Positions 301 through 57,026 of a stretch of 64,000 bases of DNA are shown one piece after another. Position 1 is the stretch's first letter. Every line of letters starts with the position of its first letter. This DNA is from Sporopachydermia quercuum. Its lineage: Eukaryota. The DNA is taken from assembly GCA_001599295.1 (NCBI GenBank), contig BCGN01000003.1, positions 186,001 to 250,000 on the forward strand, written 5' to 3'. Both the position numbers and the translations under genes were made by a program. The notes under the pieces are model-generated. The model worked only from the letters and a program-made list of their open reading frames with translations. It had not been told where the DNA came from and ran no database searches.

Positions 301-3006
301 ATGGGACTCGGAACGGCATTGAAGAAAGGCTCACGGTTTCATTCGGGATCCAAATCCAACCAGCAATCTCAANCTGGAGCTGGTCCAAATGACCCAGAAA
401 CCGATGCCGGGAGAATAGGTACTGCAGGATCAGAGAATTCTCCCCCCAGTAGATTCAGAGCTATTACTTCTTTGTACGGTGACAGAGACAGTAATAATAG
501 TACAAATAGCAATAACAGCAGTAAGAATAATAACAATAACAACAGTAATCATAAAGAACCCAACAATGATAATAACAATGAGAACAGCCACAGCAATAAT
601 AATATCAACAATAATAATTCAAACCCAAATAGTTTTTCATCTAAACTTTCTGCACGATCGAAGCAAGCCAAGTCCATTCTGCAGGTTCATCGTTCAAGCA
701 TTAATAATTACGGGCCAAGCAGTATAAGTGAAAACAGGGCAGGGCAGGGGTCAGGGTCAGGGTCGAATTCGGGTTCGAATTCAGGTTCGGCTTCGGGTTC
801 AGGATCTGGGTCGTTTGCGCCCNGCGCAGGTCCTGATTCTTTTACAAAATATAAACAGAGTCGGGATAAATCGTATGATAGTAAAGAGAGACATTCAATC
901 AGCACATCAAGCAGTACANTAGATGACAAGCAAATTAAACAGGTGATTGGATCCGGCGGAAAGGCACGTTTTTCTCAGCAGAAATCTCCTTCGACCGCTC
1001 CGAAGGTGTCCCAAGGATCCTCGTATATTCCGTTTATTCCTCGGGATGGAAGTCCCTTGGGGAAAGGCTCCAGTACAGGTTTTACGCCAGGTGATAATTC
1101 TGGTACCAGCACTCGATTAGAGTCTCCGTCAACTCCAACTCCTGTTGCTTCTGCAGCNTCTACAGGCACCAAAAGTCCTATTTATTCCCCCTCCGACTCT
1201 CCATGTGGCTCTCCCACTGTTTCTTCCTGCCCCACTTCCTCTCCAAGCTTCCCCTCTCCGCTGAAGCCGCTGTTCCCGCTGAAAATTACTCCACCCTCGG
1301 ATCTACCCATATATTCTCCTCATTCGGAAGCAATAGCTCTCATATTATCGTTTATAGTTCCCCAGTATCTTCTTTTCCGCATGGATAAGCTGAATAGCGG
1401 AAAACCTTTCGTTGTGGGGATTTCCGGAATTCAAGGAATAGGGAAAACAGCAATAGCGGATATAATAGCTAATATACTAAATGGCACGCAGGAGTCGGAC
1501 TCTAATTTACTTAGGGATTCCAGCACCGGGAAGAGAAATACTTACAAGACAATTAGAATATCAATAGACGATTTGACGATGCCGGAGACTGAATTCCAAA
1601 AATTATTGAAAGGGCATTCTCGGAATACTTTTCTGCATTATCCGGGACTTATCGGAACGCACAATGTGAAGCTGGGGATGGACATTATGGAGAGATTGCG
1701 GAGCAACTCGACCAGCTCTACTAGCTCAACAAGCTCGGGCATATCTAGTGCTTCGGATAGAAGCGGAAGCGAATCAGCCCCAATGGAAGGAATCGGTGCC
1801 CCGGATTTACCCGAATCGGTACTAGTAGACCCTTCCGGACCTTCCGGCTCGTCCGGATCCACCCGAAGGAAGTCGGTAGTCAAAATCCCGAAATTCGATA
1901 AAACAACCGGTAAACAACTGCCATTTGAGCAATGGGAAGAAATAGTACTCCAAAGAGGCTCGAGAATTGGAACCGGACTAAACAGTATTCCTGAACACGG
2001 TGTTGAACACGGGATAAGTTCGGAACATGTCCACCCGAGTATTCCCATTCCGTCTACTGACGACAACCCGGTTGAAATAATCCTTCTGGAAGGCTGGTTT
2101 CTTGGGTTCCGGTCACTCGGAGGTGAAAAAATCGAAAGCATTTGTAACGAAGCTCGGTGCCTTCCGAAGTTCCGGTTTGCTCCTGGAATGATGACGGAAA
2201 AACACGCTTTCCATCGGAGAAAAAGTGGAAATCATGATCATACCAGTGGCAGTAGTGCTAGTAGTCATACCGGAAGTAATAGTTTTTCGGGTCCCTCTAA
2301 TTCTTCCGAGTCTTCCGGGTCTTCAGATCGCAAATACTCCAGCCTGTTATCAGATTGGACAGACTACCTGACTGGCGGCGACAAACCCAGCAAATCTAGT
2401 AAATCCGGAACCTCATCTAATGACCTGAGAGGTGGCCGAACCAGTACTCCTANTTTGCCTAATTTTCAAACGCCAAACCTTAGCAACAACCCGATTCCCC
2501 GCCCGAAATCTCCCCGAGATTACCCGAACCGGAAACTATACGAAAAGCAAACTCTATTATCAACGCTAGAGCCGCTAAATATATCCGATCCGGGTAATGT
2601 GGTGTCCATTGTGCCGTCCGCGGTTATTAAATATCCGGTTGACTTCCTGAAAGAGGTAGATGAACTCCTAAATAGGTATATGGAATTGTGGAAGTATATT
2701 CATGTATTTATCCATTTGGATGCGTTGGATTTGAGTTATGCGTATTACTGGAATAGGAATAAAAAGGTTCTTTATTGGGGTACGAAGTTGGAGGAGCATT
2801 CCGAGAAAGAAAGCGGGGAAAGTGAGGGAAAAGGGGAAACCGGAGATAATGTGGACTCTAGCCGGAAGCTTACTACGTTAATTATGCCATTCTATGAGCT
2901 TTATATCCCCACTTTGCGGAGCAAGCGGATGATGGCTGAAAGAGGGGTAACTTTAAGGTTGTTGATTGATAAGCAGCATCATGTATACGAAGCATTTATT
3001 CGGTGA
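301..3006 (+). CDS. Divergent TDA10/YGR205W-like P-loop kinase (glycerate/uridine kinase-like) with long Ser/Asn/Gly low-complexity N-terminus and insertions
   Basis: 901-aa ORF. PFVVGISGIQGIGKT P-loop, ISIDD, GTHN, IPKFDK, ILLEGWFLGF and IMPFYELY occur in the same order as TDA10-family motifs, several degenerate. Confidence 0.7.
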   Translation: MGLGTALKKGSRFHSGSKSNQQSQXGAGPNDPETDAGRIGTAGSENSPPSRFRAITSLYGDRDSNNSTNSNNSSKNNNNNNSNHKEPNNDNNNENSHSNNNINNNNSNPNSFSSKLSARSKQAKSILQVHRSSINNYGPSSISENRAGQGSGSGSNSGSNSGSASGSGSGSFAPXAGPDSFTKYKQSRDKSYDSKERHSISTSSSTXDDKQIKQVIGSGGKARFSQQKSPSTAPKVSQGSSYIPFIPRDGSPLGKGSSTGFTPGDNSGTSTRLESPSTPTPVASAXSTGTKSPIYSPSDSPCGSPTVSSCPTSSPSFPSPLKPLFPLKITPPSDLPIYSPHSEAIALILSFIVPQYLLFRMDKLNSGKPFVVGISGIQGIGKTAIADIIANILNGTQESDSNLLRDSSTGKRNTYKTIRISIDDLTMPETEFQKLLKGHSRNTFLHYPGLIGTHNVKLGMDIMERLRSNSTSSTSSTSSGISSASDRSGSESAPMEGIGAPDLPESVLVDPSGPSGSSGSTRRKSVVKIPKFDKTTGKQLPFEQWEEIVLQRGSRIGTGLNSIPEHGVEHGISSEHVHPSIPIPSTDDNPVEIILLEGWFLGFRSLGGEKIESICNEARCLPKFRFAPGMMTEKHAFHRRKSGNHDHTSGSSASSHTGSNSFSGPSNSSESSGSSDRKYSSLLSDWTDYLTGGDKPSKSSKSGTSSNDLRGGRTSTPXLPNFQTPNLSNNPIPRPKSPRDYPNRKLYEKQTLLSTLEPLNISDPGNVVSIVPSAVIKYPVDFLKEVDELLNRYMELWKYIHVFIHLDALDLSYAYYWNRNKKVLYWGTKLEEHSEKESGESEGKGETGDNVDSSRKLTTLIMPFYELYIPTLRSKRMMAERGVTLRLLIDKQHHVYEAFIR

Positions 3007-3917: not shown

Positions 3918-4541
3918 TCTCTGAAAAGACATTTTCTACAGTAAGTAATGCCATTACGTTAATCGTGTAGCGGCTGAAACGCATTTACGTTGATTGCTTT
4001 TACAATTAATTCTACAATTATGCCACAGGTTCATATTTTTTGTACCAGCAACAATTCAGTTGATGTAATTATACCACGTAACCCGCAAAAACAGCAATTN
4101 TNGTAAAAGCGGTCATCAATTACTAAAACACAGCATGCGGGATAATGAAAATTACAGAAATTCATGTCATTTCTGTAGCATAAGGCGGGATTCAATGTAT
4201 CTCGTAGATTGTCAGAGGAAATGACATGGAAACCTGATCAGCTTGGGTGAACTTTCTTGAGAGGATTCCCGATTTCTTCCGAGCTTTTCGGTACCTGCCG
4301 GAGATCGGAACTAATACTGAAAATAGAAATGATATTTCCCAATATGGTATTGAATACAGCCTTGGGTGTCAAAGTCCTCGCTTAGTTTTTGCCTTAATAA
4401 GCAGATTAATTTATGTGTACGGATTTTCTATCGCCCTCTTTTTCCCGTTTTCGGTCAGTGGATTACCTTTTCTGCCCATGCCTAACCGTGAGACCAGGAT
4501 TTCCAAAAGAGTAAGTTCATCCCCATTTATAGCCGTTGTGT

Positions 4542-7500
4542 TTACTCAGTTAGGAAACAATCGTCACTAGAAAGGATTTTGCGGCGTTTCTTATTGCTAG
4601 TTATAGTGCTATCAGTAACATTACCCTTTTCAGCGGTATTCATATCCAAAGCGGTAACATTGAAACTTGAATTGGGTGATGGCAGTTTATGCAAAATGTG
4701 ACGTGGTTTCCTATTTGCGGGTTCCATTTTCCGTCCCGGCTCCAGTCCCGGCTCCCCTGGTTTAAGCATTGAACTACCCAATCGGGCAGCTTGTGGCGCA
4801 ATACTGTTTACACTGCCACAGTTATTAATACGGCCCTCGCTAAAATCAGTAGTCCTTGTGGCTGAAATTCTACTACTTGCAGTAATTCGGCCATTATTTT
4901 CAACCGTATCATCCCTGGCCTTTTCGGTGTTATAATTANCATCAGTAACTGTATTAGTAGGCCGGTCGTTGGTATTCCCATCATTGGTACGCCACTTATC
5001 ATTAACATTGATGCTGGTGTCAGAGTTAGCAGCATAGTTAGCGATCTTATCAATAAGAGTGTCACCAGCAGCAGCATTAGCAGAGTGGCCAGTTTTACTG
5101 TTAGTAGTTCTAACAGTATTAATAGCTATAACAGTGCTATCAGTATTGACAATAGCACTATTCTTACTACTGTTACTATTGAAACTCACAGAATTATTAG
5201 CATTGTTGATGTCAACAGCCCTAACAGTGCTGTTTATAGTATCTATATTAGAATCAACAGCAGCAGCACCGTCATTTCTGGATATCTTCTCATTCTTATT
5301 ATCAACACTTCTGCCGTTCTTTGTGATCTCTGCATGATTTCCATAATAGCTACCAAACACATTCATATTAGAANCATTGAAACTTCTGTTTGCTGAAATT
5401 CTAGTACTTCCAGCTTTTCTAGCATTTCTAGCGCTTCCGTTCTCCTGTTGGTTGTTTTGCCCTTCGATATTTCTGGAATTATGATTATTGTTATGAACTG
5501 ATTCATTANATATGAACAATGTACTGAATGTCTGAGTATCTTCTGTTTTGATTTCAGGCAAATTGTCAGCAACTTTTTTATTCTTGGGGTTCTTACTGCT
5601 ATAACTATCAACCGTGCTGTTCTTCGGCTTATCATTAGAACTACCCACAAATTCTTCGACACGTTGAGATTTCTCACTGTTCTCACGGCATTCCTTCTCC
5701 TCCTTCCCATTTCTATTTCCATTTCCATTTCCTTTTCCTTTTCCCGTTCTCATTCGCAATTGGCTTCTTGTTATTCTTCTGTTCTCCGGAAAGTTTTGCA
5801 GGGTTTCATTTTCATTGGTTGAAATAAGTTTCCTGTTGTTTTTTGTTTTTGTTTTACTTTTCGTTGTAGTACCAAAAGGTTGGTTCAAATTCTTAGGAGC
5901 TTTTGCATTGTTATTGAAAATCGAAGCTGATGTTGCAGTTGATATCAAATTGGTAAAACTTCCAGAATTGACGATACTTTCATTAGTGTCAATAGAAGAG
6001 TCAAAAGTATCACCAGAATTATTAGGCACAGCATAATCATCAAAGGTAGTATCATAATTATTATCGTAGGTATCGTTATAATCATCAGTTATACTGTCAG
6101 TACTGCTGGCATCTGAACTATAACTATCCACACCATCCTTACCATCAATAGAAGAGGCGGTAGAGCTTCTACAGTTAAACATATCACCAGTATTATTTCT
6201 CCTGTTCCGTTTCTTATTGCTTCTACTGCTTTTATTCCCTCTATTCCTTCTATTCCTTCCATTCTCAACTCCATTAAAATGACCATCCATCATCAAATTC
6301 TGAATATTTGACTCAGTACGAAACAGGGAATTTACCATTATATTCTGATTTGATTCCAAGCTAACTAATCGTTCGTACACGTCTTCAGACGTTTTCATCA
6401 ATGCACTGAGGCTTTTCTCATAAGAAACAAGCTTGGTGTCCGTTAGTTTTACCATGTTGAGAGTTTCATTGTTGAGTTTTCTTGTTGCTGATGTGAATGT
6501 TTCTACTATTAGAAGAATTGTTAGTAGTTAGAATTTGAGTCGTTGATGAATGATCCAATCAATGAATGGATGAACGAAAAATAGGAACCAGCAAATATTC
6601 GATATGTCGGTAGCAAATCTTTGCATTATAACCAGGATGGTAGCAACGGGAGCCAGTAGTGATATGAATAGGCAAGTAGGGTAGCACTATAGCAACATAA
6701 CAGGGTGAACAGATGTTTCAAGATATTCTTTGATAGAACTGGCATTTACTCATTCAGTCGCTAGACGTCAGTGATAGACAGAAACAGCCATTTGTTGAGA
6801 ATTAAATCTTAACATCTAGTGAATAAAGGATAGGAAGTTCATGAAACAAATGTTGTGATTGTTGTTACTTCTTTTATTTGTTTATACCTATAGACGAGCA
6901 GAGCCGTTCAGTCAAACGGCGGTATTCAGTAATTGATATCGAATCAACTGTGGTAGTGGTAGTCACCATAAGTAATCCTAGAATCTCCAGCCAAATGAAA
7001 TCTTTTCACAATCGGTTCCATTCACAGTTTAAGTGCTATTTGATGAAGTACAACGAAGTTCTCCAGCTATAANCTAGGTCACTTGATCATAATAGCATAC
7101 AGTGACATGCTTTCCATGAGTCGTGAAATGTTGTAGCGCATCATGCAATTATTATCGTAACTACCAGTAATCAGTCCAACAATTACTAACAAGCACAATA
7201 AAATAATGGTAATTGCTATCACAAACAAATAATAATCATAATCATTATCATCAAATTGCGGTTCATTTTATCCAATTCACACAATTCATTAAGTTCTGTT
7301 TATTAACAATCAAATGGTATTCATACATTTAGCATTCACCTCATTGCTTAATTCATCAAAACGGTTGTTGAACTCATTCAGCCGCTTATTCAATCGTTCA
7401 TCAAACTCGTTCAGCCCATTCACTCGTTTCTCTATCACTTTTGTCCAGTTGTTCATTTCTTCCTTCATTTCTATCGTCAAGAGCTCAAGCCTTCTCACCC

Positions 7501-7693
7501 AAGATACCATACTGTCACAGTCATTGTCATGATACTTCATAGGATGAATAGTACTAGTGGCGGTATTAGCAGTGTTAGTACTAGTATTAGGAGAGGTAGT
7601 TGTTGATGATGGCTTATTAAGAGATAGTTGGGATAGAATATTTGATTGGGATTGGGTCAGTTGAGAGAGCTGAGAAAACAGTTGAGAGTTCAT
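4542..7693 (-). CDS. REC107: Meiotic recombination protein Mer2/Rec107 orthologue; exons 7693-7327 and 6505-4542 (776 aa); 821-nt phase-1 intron 7326-6506
   Basis: Exon 1 [15 protein letters not shown] resembles S. cerevisiae Mer2 [15 protein letters not shown]. Exon 2 has [13 protein letters not shown] and RRITRS. Donor GTATGA, branch TACTAAC (6526-6520) and acceptor TAG give an in-frame join. Position next to LSM8 and MDE1 matches S. cerevisiae YJR021C-022W-024C. Confidence 0.8.
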
Positions 7694-9068
7694 CTTGATG
7701 TAGATGTATATATGCTTTGCAGATGTGCTAAGTTTGTTTCTCGGTTTATTGAACCTGTTGGATTGTTAATATTCCTTCAGTCGAGTGACGGTGAGTCTTA
7801 AGAAGATTAGCTGTTCTATTAGATGTACTAGATACAGGAATGATTCAAGGTTTGTGAACATCTGCCAATTCTTTTATGGGGAAACTGTTTGATGTAATGT
7901 CAAGCAATAATTATTAGAAAATAACCATGTTCTATGCATGGATGAACACAGCACAGGATATTCTCGTAGCATCGTAAGTCCATAACAGCCTATGCATAGT
8001 GAACTCGGTGTAACACTATGCCTAACGCAAGTGTTTTGTCCAGTGTTTAGCTTATCTTTCTAAACACTTCATGATGTATATCGCAACGTATAACATCAAA
8101 CAGTCACCATCGAGTGCGAATCTCCTTGGATCAAATGGAACTGTGGATGACAAATCAAGAACACACAGCAAACAGAGAACCAAACAGAAAACAATAGAAA
8201 CGAGGTAGTCATACAGATCTTCACACTTTCTCACAGAAAGGCATCAACACAGCACCTTGTTTCCTACACAGTCGTCAGTGTAACAGCAACAACGGCGGTA
8301 ATATTAGAACTCAATTGGGGTCAGTTTAGATTGCTCTTGAAAGTCACATCAAGTAAACAACTAGACTAGGGAAAATCAAAAATGCCTTTAATATAAGTCA
8401 ATCTTTCCAACTGCTTGTGCTGGTAGTATATTTGTTATAGAATAACTGTCTATTGTCTAGATCGTCGCTTGATGGTCTTTCTGTAAGTTGTCTATCAGTT
8501 AGCTAACAGCGACAAGCACTACTTATNGTATCCTTCTATGCGAAAGAGTATAAAACATTGTTGTTCGAAAATCCCAGTAATTTCTTGTCTATCCTTACCG
8601 TTTTATGATGATTTTGTATACATTTCTTTTATTTGTTTGATAAACAATTAAGTAAACAACAAGGAAGAAGGAAGAAAATGTGGGGGAACAGGAAATTGTA
8701 TGGGAAATTAGAGTCTTGTGAATGACCCTCTGTTTTTCGATGGAATTGAGTTTGTGATTGTATTTATTGATTGTGATGTGATGACTGATACAATACCACA
8801 GAGAGTGAATTGAAATTATTTGCATAGGAACAGAACGTATCACAAAAAGGTGATACATATCTTGATTACAAAAACATAATAGTTTCAGTTACAATCACAT
8901 ACTTTCACCCACAAAAAGAAGCAGTACGTGCAATCACCGTTGTGAATATTGTATTGTGACTCTAGATACTACAGGCGCTTGCACCAAGCGATTCAAGTGT
9001 CTCATCATCATTAGCATTTAAGAAATTGCATAAGGACACGATATAATAAAACAGAACAATCAGATACA

Positions 9069-9634
9069 ATGTCCAGTTTAAATGCTTTCATTAATAGTAA
9101 GTAGAAGAAATATTGAAATTGAGCTTGAAAATTGTCGAGGCATACTAACGAATCAATAGAAAAGGTCACGGTCATAACTACTGAGGGAAGATTATTTGTG
9201 GTAAGTATTGGAAAGGATTAACTGATATATTCTCAAATCACTAGATCTGAGAAGAATGTGTGGAGACAATGAAGCTTGACTCCAATGTACTTCGCTTAGG
9301 ATCTTCTGACGCAAAGATGATCGAGAAAGGACATCCTGCCACACTCGCACTTCATCAGAAATTGACATTTCCTATAGCATACATGATACTAACAAGAATC
9401 GGACAGGGGAAACTAGAAGGGTATGACCAAGCTGTCAATCTAATACTATCGCAGACAGAGGAACGAATAATAACACCAGATTCTCCTGGTGAAATAATCA
9501 AACTAGGTGTATATCTTTTACGAGGGGATCTAGTAGTTCTATGTGGTCTCATTGATGAGGAACTAGATAATGAGATCAACTGGGAGAAAGTAAGAGGCCA
9601 AAAGCTGAAACCTTCAAGGAATCTGAACAAATGA
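9069..9634 (+). CDS. LSM8: U6 snRNA-associated Sm-like protein Lsm8; exons 9069-9096, 9160-9200, 9407-9634
   Basis: Spliced product MSSLNAFINKKVTVITTEGRLFVGKLEGYDQAVNLIL...LGVYLLRGDLVVLCGLIDEELD has Sm1/Sm2 motifs. Both introns are GTAAGT...TACTAAC...YAG. Confidence 0.93.
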
Positions 9635-9797
9635 AAAACTAATAATAATGATAAGAAAANCTGATAATAAAAAAATGGAACAACGACTAAAAAGCAGGTT
9701 CTACGACAAATCCACGAATTATAGATAGTAACACAAATCAACTTTCACACAACCACAATAACAGCAGTGATATACCATTAATCAATCAAATAATCAT

Positions 9798-10803
9798 TCA
9801 GTTGATAACTTGATTCACATACATTTTCTCCGCACCAATTGCACAGTCAGGAGGAATACCAAACTGCTTCATTTTGATCGCAAGCTCAAGCAAATAGTCA
9901 ATAGCTTCATTATAAATCTTAGCCTTCCACACAGTCTCTCCCCACACATANATACCATGACGACGCACGAGTACTGCTGTTGCTTGAGGATAATTCTTGA
10001 TGGCTTCTTGTAAACTATCGGTCAGATCTTCTTCATGTGCAGTGTTTTCAATAATAGGGATTTCTAGGGTATCAAAAAATCCAAGACTACCTGGTTCTGT
10101 TACTTTTGGAATAGCTTTAATTTGTTCAATATTAGCAATTCGAAACACTCTGTCGTACAGCAATGACACCATTACCGCGTTTTGTGAATGAGTATGAATG
10201 CAAGCTCCAGCATTACGCATTTTATATGCTGACATGAAAAGAGGTGTGCAGGCTGATGGTTTATACACTTTAGGTTTTCTCAGAATCTTCTCTGATTCAT
10301 AATCGAGAACAAACATATTTTCAGGAATCATTCGCTGGTCTGTTAGTGAATTTAGATGGATATTGGTGCTGGATTTCAATCTATGAGCATTGCGAACTTT
10401 AGAACCTTTCATATCTGTTCTCCATACTACTCCTGATCATTTCCAGCCTAGAATCTAGATTTACATACCTCTTTCTGAACTCCCGATGGAGCAATGAAAA
10501 TTTTGTCTCTAATAAATAATTTTTAGTACGCAAGTCTTCAGAATTCATAACTGGTCTGGCCCATTTAAGTCAACAAACTTCAGACATGAGTACGTACTCA
10601 CTGTCAATTGATACTTACTCTTCCCTAATACTGATTCCCCCACCAGTACCGGTGACCCAGCCATTGTTATAGAAGATCTTACACAATTCACAAATAAGAT
10701 TAGCAGGATGATTAGGGTCCTCTGATGTAATCAGAATATCTTCTTCCCTTTCTAAGTCGAAAGCCTCTGTAGGCTTTCCGTTATGATTGCATTTACAAGC
10801 CAT
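9798..10803 (-). CDS. MDE1: Methylthioribulose-1-phosphate dehydratase (methionine salvage); exons 10803-10619, 10508-10469, 10334-9798
   Basis: Spliced frame gives [33 protein letters not shown]...SACTPLF...ACIHTHS...VLVRRHG, the class II aldolase/APIP motifs. Confidence 0.95.
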
Positions 10804-11377
10804 TTTGAAGTCTGAGCCAAGAGATCCAACTAACTACGGAACTACAGAACGTTAATAATTACCACTGATCCAATCGCAAAATTGACTTCCAAAGTGCCTA
10901 CATTCTCTCAAAATACACCCGCAAATAACATACTGTCAGTATAATACACTTTTGGTTATTGGAATAGCAGCTAAAACGTATTTATACCGAGAATAGCTAG
11001 CAAACTGGAAAAACTATCAAGGGTATGTATGTATGATATAATTTTCATCACGAAAAGGGAACAATAAGGGCCATGTGGGTTGACGCAATAATATGCAACT
11101 AGATCTTCAAACGAAGTTGCTATGTCTTATAATATCACGTAAACATAATTATATACTCTAAGTCTGTGATTACGTAATCGGTAACATATCCTACAGTCTA
11201 TCTTAGCATGTCATAATGTGATGGTTTATTATTCATTTTAATGCAGCATTTCCCTATGTAAAATCGCCCTTTTTATGTCAATTATATGCAAGCTCCCATA
11301 CTCTTTTCAATGGCACCAAAACGCTCAAATTGGCTCACGATTTCATCGCAAAATCAGCATCGGTTTCAATCAATTCT

Positions 11378-17024: not shown

Positions 17025-17271
17025 CTTGATGTTAGTATTTATGATCGGATCGAATATGATCAATCATATATGCATATAATGACTGATGAGCTTTTGATGG
17101 ATAACTATAAAGCCGTAAAGCCATCACCATGAAATAAAAAAATGACTTCCTGAAAAGAATTTCGCTCATATAATCCAACTATGATCAATTATAAGGTGAA
17201 AATAGCTGTAAAACAATGCAATTGTAGATGATGATATATAATGATAGGCGACTAACTCTTCCATCCAATTC

Positions 17272-17541
17272 ACGCGTCAAGTGTAACGGTCTTCTCGTCT
17301 ATAATTAGCTCTCTGTACAAAGCAATACAACAACTAGCTCATATCAAATAGTAATATTTCAACCCCTAAAACCTTACACATTTTTTGGCCTCATCGATAC
17401 TCATAATGGACCACGATGGAGCACATATAATAAACATACCTATCAATCTCGCCTCTCACTGTCGTATTCTCTCAATTCTCTCATTATAAGAATAATTCTA
17501 CGCGTTTTCAGTCGAACGCGGGTTTTCAGACGCGTCACGTG
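17272..17541. promoter_or_regulatory. MCB (ACGCGT) cluster, G1/S promoter of DNA2
   Basis: ACGCGT at 17272, 17500 and 17530, ACGCGG at 17516, and CACGTG at 17536, upstream of a replication gene. Confidence 0.7.
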
Positions 17542-18158
17542 GAAAATAAATAGTTAGTCATGTGACATTGGCGTGATGGGAACTTTCCTAATTGGTGTGT
17601 GCCAATTTTATTCAGTAGATAAGGAAAACGGTGATGAAATGCTTTTATTGAGGTATTTTCTGTGGTCATGTTATGTAGTAAATGAAGAGCAGTAATAAAT
17701 TAGATGTAAGATTTGTTGCNTATTAGGTAGGGGAAGCATCCAATTGAGAATAGGGAAATTTGATGTCTAGATTGTTATTGTTTGTTTGTTTGGGTTGATC
17801 GTTTGCTTAGATAACTACTAGATTGGATTCCTCCCTTACTCTATGTGTATGAAGTAAGGAATATGATATGAATTGGATACCATCAATTGATTGTACGGAT
17901 TATATGGATTATAACGTACTGATACCGTACTGAAAAGAAGAAAAGTGTGAAATCGGGCGAAAGATTCAATTTGATAGAGGTTGATATACAGTTGTACATT
18001 CGCTAGCATTGTAATTATTGATTAGTTGTGCGATAGAAGTAGAACCAACCTGTTCTCAGGCTTTCAGTCAATCAGGTATTATAGGTATTCAGGTATTTGA
18101 TTCGGTATTTAATCAAGAAAAGACCAAAACCGAGCACTCAGCTGTTTACGTTAACACC

Positions 18159-52443: not shown

Positions 52444-53451
52444 ATGCCTATTTCAAAACACATATTATCTACAGATTCTGATTTGCCATCATTGGCAGAC
52501 ATTAAAGCAAAGAACGAAAAGGAAAATCCAGATCTTCCACCGGAAACTGCGTGGATCTGGGGTCCTGACGATGAGCTTGGAAGAGTTAATCTTCTTACTC
52601 CAGAAAGAGTTTTGAATGCTAAGAAGGAAATTGAATCAGGAACCGTGGCATCCTTAAATTGGTCAATTTTACTCCCTGATGCTCCTTCTTTTTCGCGTCC
52701 AAAAGCTACCTGGAAATTAAGACCCATGGGCCATTGGTTTGACGACGAGATCATAATGAATACTCAGTCAGGTTCTCAATTCGATGGGTTCAGGCATTTC
52801 CCTCATTTACCCACTAATATGTATTACAACAATTTGAAACCTGATGAAATTGATTCCGATTCAATTCGGTGTGGTATTCAAGCTATGGCGGAAAGAGGAA
52901 TTGCCGGAAGAGGNGTTTTGTTAGATTTTGCCTCTTGGGCAGAGGAAAAAGGTATTGAATATGATGCATTCACATCTTACAAAATTACTGTTGATCAGTT
53001 AAAACAAATTGCTGCCCATCAAGGAACTGAATTTCAAGTTGGGGATATCTTGCTTGTAAGATCAGGTTGGATGAAGAGTTACGAAGCGAAAAGAGATAAA
53101 GATCCTCGCTCAGTTAGAGGATCTCCTAATCCTAGTCATATTGGGGTGGGACAGGGCGAAGAAGCTAAAGAATGGCTTCATGATAATTATTTCTCCATTG
53201 TGGGTGGTGATTCACCATCATTTGAAACTTGGCCTTTTGGTTATGATGCAGGAACTGGAGCAGGTGCAGAGAATGCTTTGCACAACTTTTTGCTATGTTG
53301 CTGGGGTGTCTTGATTGGTGAGATGCTTGATTTGGAGGATCTGGCAGAGAAATGCAAGAAAGCGAAGAAATGGTCTTTCTTTTTCACTTCTGCACCTATC
53401 AATTCACCTGGCGGTGTAGCAACTCTGGCCAATTCATTAGCTATTCTTTGA
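52444..53451 (+). CDS. Putative cyclase / kynurenine-formamidase-like metal hydrolase
   Basis: WGPDDELGRVNLL, NTQSGSQFDGFRH, GIAGRxVLLD, GDILLVRSG, IGEMLDLEDL, FFFTSAP: fungal cyclase-family motifs. Confidence 0.85.
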   Translation: MPISKHILSTDSDLPSLADIKAKNEKENPDLPPETAWIWGPDDELGRVNLLTPERVLNAKKEIESGTVASLNWSILLPDAPSFSRPKATWKLRPMGHWFDDEIIMNTQSGSQFDGFRHFPHLPTNMYYNNLKPDEIDSDSIRCGIQAMAERGIAGRXVLLDFASWAEEKGIEYDAFTSYKITVDQLKQIAAHQGTEFQVGDILLVRSGWMKSYEAKRDKDPRSVRGSPNPSHIGVGQGEEAKEWLHDNYFSIVGGDSPSFETWPFGYDAGTGAGAENALHNFLLCCWGVLIGEMLDLEDLAEKCKKAKKWSFFFTSAPINSPGGVATLANSLAIL

Positions 53452-55997: not shown

Positions 55998-57026
55998 ATG
56001 AGCACTGTTAATACGACAAAAGTTATTAAACCACCTCAAATAGGTGAGATGACAGAAGAGAATCATACAACCAATGTTCAACTGATCAATTCTAATCATG
56101 ATAACGAAAGATTAAAGTTTTTGTTGTCAAGAATTGTTGTTCATCTTCATGAGTTTGCAAGAGAGACCCTATTAACAACAGATGAATGGATGGCAGGTAT
56201 TGAATTTCTAACTCAAGTTGGTCAAATGTGCAGTGACATTCGTCAGGAATTCATTCTTTTATCAGATGTTCTTGGATTGTCAGTTTTAGTTGATTCATTA
56301 TCCCATCCCAAGCCTGATAATGCTACAATTGGAACATTATTAGGACCTTTCCATACAGAAGATGCACACGAAGTNGAATTAGGTGATACTATTATCAAGA
56401 ATCATCATACCACACAAAAGCCAGGTGAACCTTTAATTATATTAGGTACAGTTAAAGACACTGATGGTAATCCAATAAAAAATGCTAGTCTTGATATCTG
56501 GCATTGTGATACGGATGGACTATATGATACTCAATATGAAGATAGGGATGGACCTGATTTAAGAGGAATTTATAAAACTGATGACGAAGGAAATTTTATC
56601 ATTAAGTGTATTCGACCTGTTCCATACTCGATTCCTAGTGATGGTCCAGTTGGAAAGCTTTTGCATAAAATTGGTCGTCATACTTATAGACCTGCTCATT
56701 TGCATTTCATTATCGATGCACCTGGNTACGACCAATTGATCACCGCTTTGTATCATAAAGGTGACCCATATGAAAAAAGTGATGCCGTGTTTGGTGTTAA
56801 GAATAAGNTAGTTTTTGAGTTAGATAAGTGTGGCAAAGATGTGGCCTCTAAGTATGAGATGAACGAAGATGATTGGCTACTCAAGTGGGACTTCGTTTTG
56901 GTGAATGAAAGCGAAGCTGCTAAGATTAGAAAAGAAAGAGCTGAAAAGGTTGTTGAAGAGAACAAGAAGCATGATGTATACGTCAAGCTAGATGAAAATG
57001 GATTACCTGTTCTCGATCTTGATTAA
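55998..57026 (+). CDS. Hydroxyquinol/catechol 1,2-dioxygenase (intradiol ring cleavage)
   Basis: RQEFILLSDVLGLS, LGPF, and Fe ligands in GLYDTQY, PVPYSIP and RPAHLH; SDAVFGVK. Confidence 0.92.
   Translation: MSTVNTTKVIKPPQIGEMTEENHTTNVQLINSNHDNERLKFLLSRIVVHLHEFARETLLTTDEWMAGIEFLTQVGQMCSDIRQEFILLSDVLGLSVLVDSLSHPKPDNATIGTLLGPFHTEDAHEXELGDTIIKNHHTTQKPGEPLIILGTVKDTDGNPIKNASLDIWHCDTDGLYDTQYEDRDGPDLRGIYKTDDEGNFIIKCIRPVPYSIPSDGPVGKLLHKIGRHTYRPAHLHFIIDAPXYDQLITALYHKGDPYEKSDAVFGVKNKXVFELDKCGKDVASKYEMNEDDWLLKWDFVLVNESEAAKIRKERAEKVVEENKKHDVYVKLDENGLPVLDLD

Follow-up and report, generated by a model that had tools for sequence, protein, structure and literature searches.

Mer2 is essential for the formation of meiotic DNA breaks and evolves too fast for sequence searches. 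Across its family, which includes Schizosaccharomyces pombe Rec15, Sordaria Asy2, mouse IHO1 and plant PRD3/PAIR1, sequence divergence is extreme and only short motifs survive; the members are described in the cited part of Tesse et al. 2017 (PMC5695089) as having the motif SSM1, a central coiled coil and a disordered C-terminal part. A gene that is alike by this description lies in the 64,000-nucleotide stretch of Sporopachydermia quercuum contig BCGN01000003.1 analysed here (hereafter, the window), on the minus strand between positions 7693 and 4542, where annotation based on open reading frames (ORFs) would list two orphans. We consider it very probable that these two ORFs are the exons of a single spliced ortholog of MER2/REC107.

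The closest described gene is REC107/MER2 of Saccharomyces cerevisiae (YJR021C; represented here by locus L003 and proteins P0002-P0015). In the passages cited here, residues W58, K61 and L64 of its SSM1, mutated in mer2-3a, are called universally conserved (Rousova et al. 2021, PMC8848140), S30 is identified as a cyclin-dependent kinase (CDK) site, the coiled coil is placed at about residues 77-227, i.e., roughly 150 residues, and the basic patch KRRR (K265-R268) is assigned to DNA binding (Claeys Bouuaert preprint, bioRxiv 10.1101/2020.02.21.960245). The transcript is described as efficiently spliced only with Mer1, which binds the enhancer AYACCCUY within 25 nucleotides (nt) of a weak donor, the CCC triplet of this enhancer being essential (PMC3082912). 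As modelled here, the window gene shares with S. cerevisiae REC107 the two-exon structure, in which a phase-1 intron with a non-consensus donor interrupts the early part of the coiled coil, as well as the S-P site, the SSM1 residues, a predicted long central helix with candidate basic patches after it and the MDE1 and LSM8 neighbours on the same relative strands. In the following, we describe these features and the points on which the two genes differ.

Gene model

The two ORFs on the minus strand are 127 amino acids (aa; 7693-7310) and 637 aa (6455-4542) long. The joined gene has the following parts:

7327..7693, minus strand: exon 1, with its ATG at 7693; 367 nt, comprising 122 codons and one base of codon 123; by similarity, the Mer2 N-terminus
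7321..7326, minus strand: 5' splice site GTATGA, directly after T7327 and five codons before the stop of the 127-aa ORF
6506..7326, minus strand: putative intron of 821 nt, phase 1 (codon 123), 35% GC
6520..6526, minus strand: branch point TACTAAC, with the branch A at 6521, 15 nt ahead of the acceptor G
6506..6507, minus strand: 3' splice site AG, the first AG past the branch point, in a tandem TAGTAG
4542..6505, minus strand: exon 2, which completes codon 123 with two bases and continues through codons 124-776 to the stop; three N bases lie inside

An earlier sequence-only reading had proposed this model, with the 127-aa ORF ending at T followed by GTATGA, a TACTAAC at 6526-6520 ahead of a tandem TAGTAG, and an in-frame join. 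Each of these elements is present: GTATGA occupies 7326-7321 directly after T7327, the first AG of the tandem is at 6507-6506, and T7327 together with TA (6505-6504) forms a Leu codon, so that the joined coding sequence specifies 776 aa with a single terminal stop, the intron measuring 821 nt where about 820 had been estimated. In motif scans of the interval, GTATGA is the sole donor-like hexamer within the 127-aa ORF and TACTAAC the sole branch-like motif in 7320-6460. Among the possible acceptors, the first AG after TACTAAC yields the longest continuation (654 aa), the second runs into a stop at once, and the third, with exon start 6487, likewise keeps the frame, at the cost of six residues.

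TACTAAC is common in the window, with 18 matches against 7.47 expected from shuffles, none of which reached 18, and two of the copies lie inside the coding sequence of the MER2 candidate itself; the branch motif alone is, therefore, weak evidence and no proof. The excess is consistent with many introns, and several of the copies are Thr-Asn codon pairs in N/T-rich coding sequence.

Between the two ORFs, a scan detected no open frame of more than 62 codons on the minus strand, so that the remainder of a Mer2 protein can only derive from the 637-aa ORF. An alternative exon 2 hidden in this interval was rejected for the same reason, none of the frames present being coiled-coil-like. Comparison of the intron with the rest of the window and with all fetched loci revealed no repeat or mobile-element remnant, and the Rfam search of 4000-11000 gave no match and, hence, no intronic small nucleolar RNA. 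Contigs from two sequencing runs that carry the locus differ from the window at 0 letters, i.e., show no polymorphism; those of two further runs came from unrelated organisms.

Similarity of exon 1 to Mer2

Judged by sequence, exon 1 is the N-terminus of Mer2. Among the 8 Pfam families listed for it, Mer2 (PF09074) is the best, with an E-value of 0.0028 and 17.9 bits, residues 29-110 aligning with positions 1-76 of the 193-position profile. BLASTP against S. cerevisiae Rec107p (P0004) gave an E-value of 3e-5 with 17 identities over 53 positions, and hhalign against four Saccharomyces Rec107 proteins an E-value of 0.0013. With a block hidden Markov model (HMM) of the N-terminal part (residues 48-105), exon 1 scored 11.9 bits, a value reached by none of 500 composition-matched shuffles (highest, 8.3). 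Reference genes came from a metagenome scan with the MDE1 protein of the window, which retrieved 80 fungal loci totalling 685 kb. In a tblastn search of these loci, the best exon-1 match was exon 1 of REC107 in L003, some 800 nt past the MDE1 gene on its downstream side.

The similarity includes two short features:

7460..7519, minus strand: SSM1-like motif, residues 59-78, from the BLASTP and hhalign alignments
7589..7594, minus strand: S34-P35, candidate CDK site, aligned by MAFFT with the SSP of L003 and L004; function presumed from the alignment

Within the motif, W65, R68 and L71 sit on W58, K61 and L64 of S. cerevisiae Mer2, with K61 replaced by R, and E75, K77 and E78 align with E68, R70 and E71; D52 is not kept. 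S34-P35 lies 31 residues before W65, compared with 28 residues between S30-P31 and W58 in S. cerevisiae. Word-indexed searches for homologs of exon 1 (among longer proteins) and of residues 1-120 of exon 2 returned no matches, and a search of PDB sequences with exon 1 found nothing below an E-value of 0.24.

Gene order

Upstream of the candidate lie two genes that also adjoin REC107 in other yeasts:

9069..9634, plus strand: ortholog of LSM8 with three exons, the divergent neighbour; next to REC107 also in L003 and L004
9798..10803, minus strand: ortholog of MDE1 (class II aldolase) with three exons; follows LSM8, as it does in L003 and L004

The arrangement MDE1(-), LSM8(+), candidate(-) reproduces both the order and the relative strands of MDE1-LSM8-REC107 in L003 and L004, two Saccharomycetaceae contigs from the metagenome scan. 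L003 is S. cerevisiae: exon 2 of its REC107 is 100% identical to proteins named Rec107p, which carry PF09074, and its gene order is BNA1-MDE1-LSM8-REC107-TES1-ESS1-ILV3. L004 belongs to a second yeast, the Mer2 of which is 32-44% identical to S. cerevisiae Mer2. Synteny is evidence independent of the similarity of the candidate protein itself. On the far side of the candidate, where S. cerevisiae has TES1, the window carries a 901-aa ORF without a Pfam family (301-3006, plus strand), and synteny ends there.

Introns of the neighbouring genes

Four introns in LSM8 and MDE1 were placed by reading the DNA against the intronless orthologs of a third fungal locus, L002. Those of LSM8 are at 9097-9159 and 9201-9406, both of the form GTAAGT...TACTAAC, and those of MDE1 at 10618-10509 (GTAAGT...TACTAAA) and 10468-10335 (GTATGT...CACTAAC). 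They measure 63-206 nt, with the branch A 8-14 nt ahead of the acceptor G, and comprise three GTAAGT donors and one GTATGT, along with two TACTAAC branch sites, one TACTAAA and one CACTAAC. The branch site of the MER2-candidate intron fits this local pattern and its 15-nt spacing is close to it; the last base of its donor, GTATGA, departs from the GTAAGT and GTATGT of the four introns.

In the second MDE1 intron, the first AG, 3 nt after the branch A, is skipped for the next one. LSM8 is intronless in L002, L003 and L004, unlike in the window, and MDE1 is likewise intronless in L002-L004. A listed 121-aa ORF at 9269-9634 is part intron and part exon 3 of LSM8.

Intron position in MER2 genes

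The REC107 intron of L003 (11516-11595) is 80 nt long, with donor GTTCGT, enhancer ATACCCTC and TACTAAC, and interrupts codon 106 in phase 1, confirming the length and phase that the earlier reading gave for the S. cerevisiae intron; the intron of L004 (4454-4517) is 64 nt long, with donor GTTAGT, enhancer ATACCCTT and TACTAAC, and interrupts codon 97, again in phase 1. The S. cerevisiae Mer2 motifs that the earlier reading had quoted also proved essentially right against L003 and P0004, the exception being the last residue of the middle one, where L003 has V and S. kudriavzevii has L. The distance from the SSM1 tryptophan to the split codon is 48 residues in L003, 48 in L004 and 58 in the window gene. 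MAFFT places the split codons of the three genes in columns 129, 130 and 131, and BLASTP, hhalign (both alignments extended), phmmer and MAFFT agree on split codons 2-3 residues apart and on a seven-residue insertion in the helix of the window protein; with this insertion, the two tandem 11-residue LNE/LNxFN repeats that both proteins contain also come into register. Given the same phase and the near-identical position, a shared origin of the MER2 introns appears likely on the alignments, though not proven. A limited literature search (titles and abstracts) found none on conservation of the MER2 intron outside Saccharomyces.

The window gene differs from S. cerevisiae REC107 in having an intron of 821 rather than 80 nt, with donor GTATGA rather than GTTCGT and without an exact Mer1 enhancer, in its length (776 versus 314 aa), in the SSM1-to-intron distance given above and in a far-side neighbour other than TES1. 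L004 MER2 (266 aa) resembles the window gene in synteny, in intron phase and in the ITRS tetrapeptide of a basic patch; it differs in its much shorter intron and protein and in that it can be aligned with S. cerevisiae Mer2 over the full length, whereas exon 2 of the window gene cannot. Several Logan/ENA 'proteins' of 206-213 aa (P0012, P0013, P0016, P0017, P0021 and P0025) are exon-2-only calls of Saccharomyces REC107, the same split annotation that the window gene would suffer.

Predicted structure and exon 2

The two exon pieces were modelled separately with AlphaFold2 in single-sequence mode. For exon 1, a helix is predicted over residues 56-121 of 122, and for exon 2, over residues 2-77 of the piece (76 residues), with a predicted local distance difference test score (pLDDT) above 90, followed by disorder. 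The exon-2 helix takes in 16 codons upstream of the first ATG of the 637-aa ORF. If joined, the two would form a helix of about 145 residues across the exon junction, similar in length to the S. cerevisiae coiled coil (77-227) and in agreement with the coiled coil that the sequence-only reading had drawn through the join; in the separately modelled pieces, the helices reach both exon edges. The tail that follows is N/S/T-rich, basic and probably disordered.

Two segments of exon 2 had been put forward as counterparts of S. cerevisiae Mer2 motifs:

6357..6386, minus strand: segment resembling the S. cerevisiae region around V195, residues 163-172; 60 of 500 shuffles score as high
5748..5774, minus strand: ITRSQLRMR, residues 367-375, resembling the basic patch with [VI]TRSM in the Mer2 proteins of Saccharomyces and L004; no more than suggestive

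The block HMM of the V195 region did choose residues 163-172 as its best match in exon 2, without significance. Exon 2 has basic patches, including ITRSQLRMR, and the score of the basic-patch block HMM was matched by 130 of 500 shuffles; the tetrapeptide [VI]TRS, which the four reference proteins all share, turned up in 882 of 20000 shuffles. Stricter patterns were picked after the match had been seen and are, therefore, to be discounted. Thus, neither motif match has statistical support and, as exon 2 shows no statistically supported similarity to Mer2, both are only suggestive. For the same reason, the join rests on the splice signals, the phase and position of the intron, the helices that reach both exon edges and the lack of other coding space.

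Alternative explanations

A number of observations weigh against a single spliced MER2 gene. With 17.9 bits, exon 1 does not reach the Pfam gathering cut-off of 27.7 bits. For exon 2, the Pfam Mer2 family gives no match, be it with the whole exon or with three N-terminal pieces; the family HMM scores -3.7 bits; hhalign yields an E-value of 0.21 with an alignment to the wrong region; and the block HMMs 107-167, 168-215, 252-275 and 292-314 are equalled or beaten by 109, 60, 130 and 500 of 500 shuffles, respectively. SSM2 (IIPWEE type), the C-terminal motif that Saccharomyces proteins have, was not found in exon 2 with a block HMM of the last 23 residues from four Saccharomyces/L004 proteins; because that model was built only from Saccharomyces and L004, a diverged SSM2 could escape it. 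The predicted 776-aa protein is 2.5 times as long as S. cerevisiae Mer2, and the 821-nt intron 4 to 13 times as long as the four local introns checked. Further donor-like sites occur in the interval, GTTAGT at 7190 and GTATGC at 7100, and either could serve a separate intron in the 5' untranslated region (UTR) of the 637-aa ORF. In L002, the MDE1 of which is the closest to that of the window (70%), MDE1 and LSM8 are adjacent with no MER2 beside them (5691-8770), the following gene being an unrelated 468-aa ORF and no MER2-like ORF lying between them; conservation of the block is, therefore, not universal, and in the L002 yeast MER2 has been either moved or lost. Finally, the four-sequence family HMM uses an ungapped register that sets the introns 13 residues apart. 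The earlier claim of the same ancient intron thus holds for the phase, which is 1 in all three genes, and for the position in most alignments (2-3 codons apart) but not in that of the family HMM.

These points bear in different ways on the two other explanations that we considered. If the locus harboured two separate genes, the 127-aa ORF would be a short or decaying remnant of the Mer2 N-terminus, and the 637-aa ORF would encode an unrelated protein of low complexity, with a promoter to itself and a 5'UTR intron served by the TACTAAC and AG. The lack of significant Mer2 similarity in exon 2 and the donor-like GTTAGT and GTATGC within the interval speak for this scenario, and the apparent 5'UTR intron of about 415 nt before DNA2 in the window indicates that long leader introns may occur. 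It requires, however, several coincidences, namely, that the only donor-like site of the 127-aa ORF lies five codons before the stop, in phase for reading into the long ORF, and that this donor also coincides with the phase-1 intron position of Saccharomycetaceae MER2. Moreover, the predicted helices reach both exon edges, including the codons ahead of the first ATG; the 127-aa product would be without most of the coiled coil, which is the Mer2 core according to the cited parts of PMC8848140 and bioRxiv 10.1101/2020.02.21.960245; and a terminator as well as a promoter would have to fit into no more than 120-230 nt. We therefore regard two separate genes as improbable. It is less probable still that the gene is spliced as proposed without being a Mer2 ortholog, the exon-1 match then reflecting generic coiled-coil similarity. 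In its favour are the sub-threshold Pfam score, with several other coiled-coil families, such as ATG1 MIT (E-value, 0.0075) and ATG16 (0.029), close behind Mer2, the single match, a low-complexity one (P0001), that an exhaustive HMMER search found for exon 1 among 1.84 billion representatives, and the ESM Atlas results, which offered nothing useful, only generic helical clusters with scores below 0.85 for exon 1 and exon 2. Yet the match includes the non-heptad W, K/R and L of SSM1, spaced as in the published motif, together with E, R/K and E, its score was reached by 0 of 500 composition-matched shuffles, and the position beside LSM8 and MDE1 is independent evidence that does not derive from the sequence of the protein.

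Thus, the core of the sequence-only reading, one spliced MER2/REC107 gene with an intron of about 820 nt, is supported by the exon-1 matches, the synteny and the unique, in-frame splice signals, and we infer both that splicing occurs and that exon 2 encodes the C-terminal part of Mer2. On this account, the locus is a missed ortholog of a known gene and no new kind of system, its long intron and the 776-aa length being variations of degree.

Proposed expression and role

Under the single-gene model, a primary transcript would run on the minus strand from upstream of 7693 to beyond 4542, and removal of the 821-nt phase-1 intron (GTATGA ... TACTAAC-N13-AG) would produce the mRNA for the 776-aa protein. 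Left unspliced, it would be translated until five codons into the intron, giving the 127-aa fragment, so that functional protein would depend on the removal of a long intron with a non-consensus donor, as in S. cerevisiae MER2, where the unspliced frame also stops shortly inside the intron. The mature protein would consist of the S-P site, the SSM1 motif, one helix of about 145 residues across the exon junction and a long, basic, low-complexity tail. In S. cerevisiae, SSM1 is required for double-strand break formation and Mre11 binding. The helix would correspond to the tetrameric coiled coil, about 150 residues long, of S. cerevisiae Mer2. By homology, the protein would act as a scaffold that connects Rec114-Mei4, the chromosome axis and Spo11 and so initiates meiotic recombination.

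With this gene, the known Mer2 orthologs would come to include one from a yeast that probably does not belong to the close relatives of S. cerevisiae. Where similarity fails, Mer2 could be located through its LSM8-MDE1 neighbourhood and its phase-1 intron, and a divergent sequence in which nothing but the S-P site, SSM1 and the long helix is retained points to the indispensable parts of the protein.

Possible regulation of splicing

The length of the intron and the weakness of its donor prompt the question of whether regulated splicing of MER2 predates the Mer1 system of S. cerevisiae. One element of the intron is relevant in this context:

7313..7320, minus strand: ATACCATT, enhancer-like, at intron positions +7 to +14, with one mismatch to AYACCCUY, inside the CCC triplet; a lead only

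As in the Mer1/Nam8-dependent introns of S. cerevisiae (MER2, MER3, AMA1 and SPO22), a weak donor is here combined with an enhancer-like element within 25 nt of it; in contrast to those introns, as the cited part of PMC3082912 describes them, the essential CCC triplet is CCA here, the S. cerevisiae gene having ATACCCTC in place of ATACCATT. Exact AYACCCUY has 7 matches in the window, none of them within the candidate intron, and with up to one mismatch the pattern occurs 117 times in 128,000 strand positions, or roughly 0.02 times per 25-nt span. We therefore treat ATACCATT and the non-consensus donor as a lead to regulation, not as a finding. It is conceivable, though in our view unlikely, that the MER2 intron, in which a weak donor is closely followed by an enhancer-like element, is an ancient splicing switch that predates the Saccharomyces lineage and has grown tenfold in this yeast. 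If so, the production of Mer2 and, hence, the start of meiotic recombination would be gated by the regulated removal of an exceptionally long intron, possibly with a Mer1-like factor recognising the variant element ATACCAUU.

The 1.37-kb intergenic region between MER2 and LSM8 contains, about 600 nt upstream of the MER2 start, the GC-rich sequence TACCGCCG (8293-8300, minus strand), which resembles the core of the URS1/Ume6 consensus.

Other features of the window

The DNA2 ORF (17024-11529, minus strand; 1831 aa) begins directly after a TACTAAC (17037-17031) and an AG, and a GTATGT at 17439-17434 suggests the 5'UTR intron of about 415 nt (17025-17439, minus strand) mentioned above. Upstream of this donor, at about 17500-17560, lie ACGCGT elements, which are MluI-box-like.

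The window has a GC content of 37% and contains 67 N bases. At all 5 positions readable in the printed alignment with S. cerevisiae Yta7, CTG codons align with Leu or Ile (5/5), which indicates the standard code. The window also encodes a putative cyclase (52444-53451, plus strand) and a dioxygenase of the catechol/hydroxyquinol type (55998-57026, plus strand). To our knowledge, aromatic-catabolism genes such as these two are not typical of Saccharomyces. Together, the introns of LSM8 and MDE1 and genes like the catechol dioxygenase suggest that this yeast is not a close relative of S. cerevisiae.

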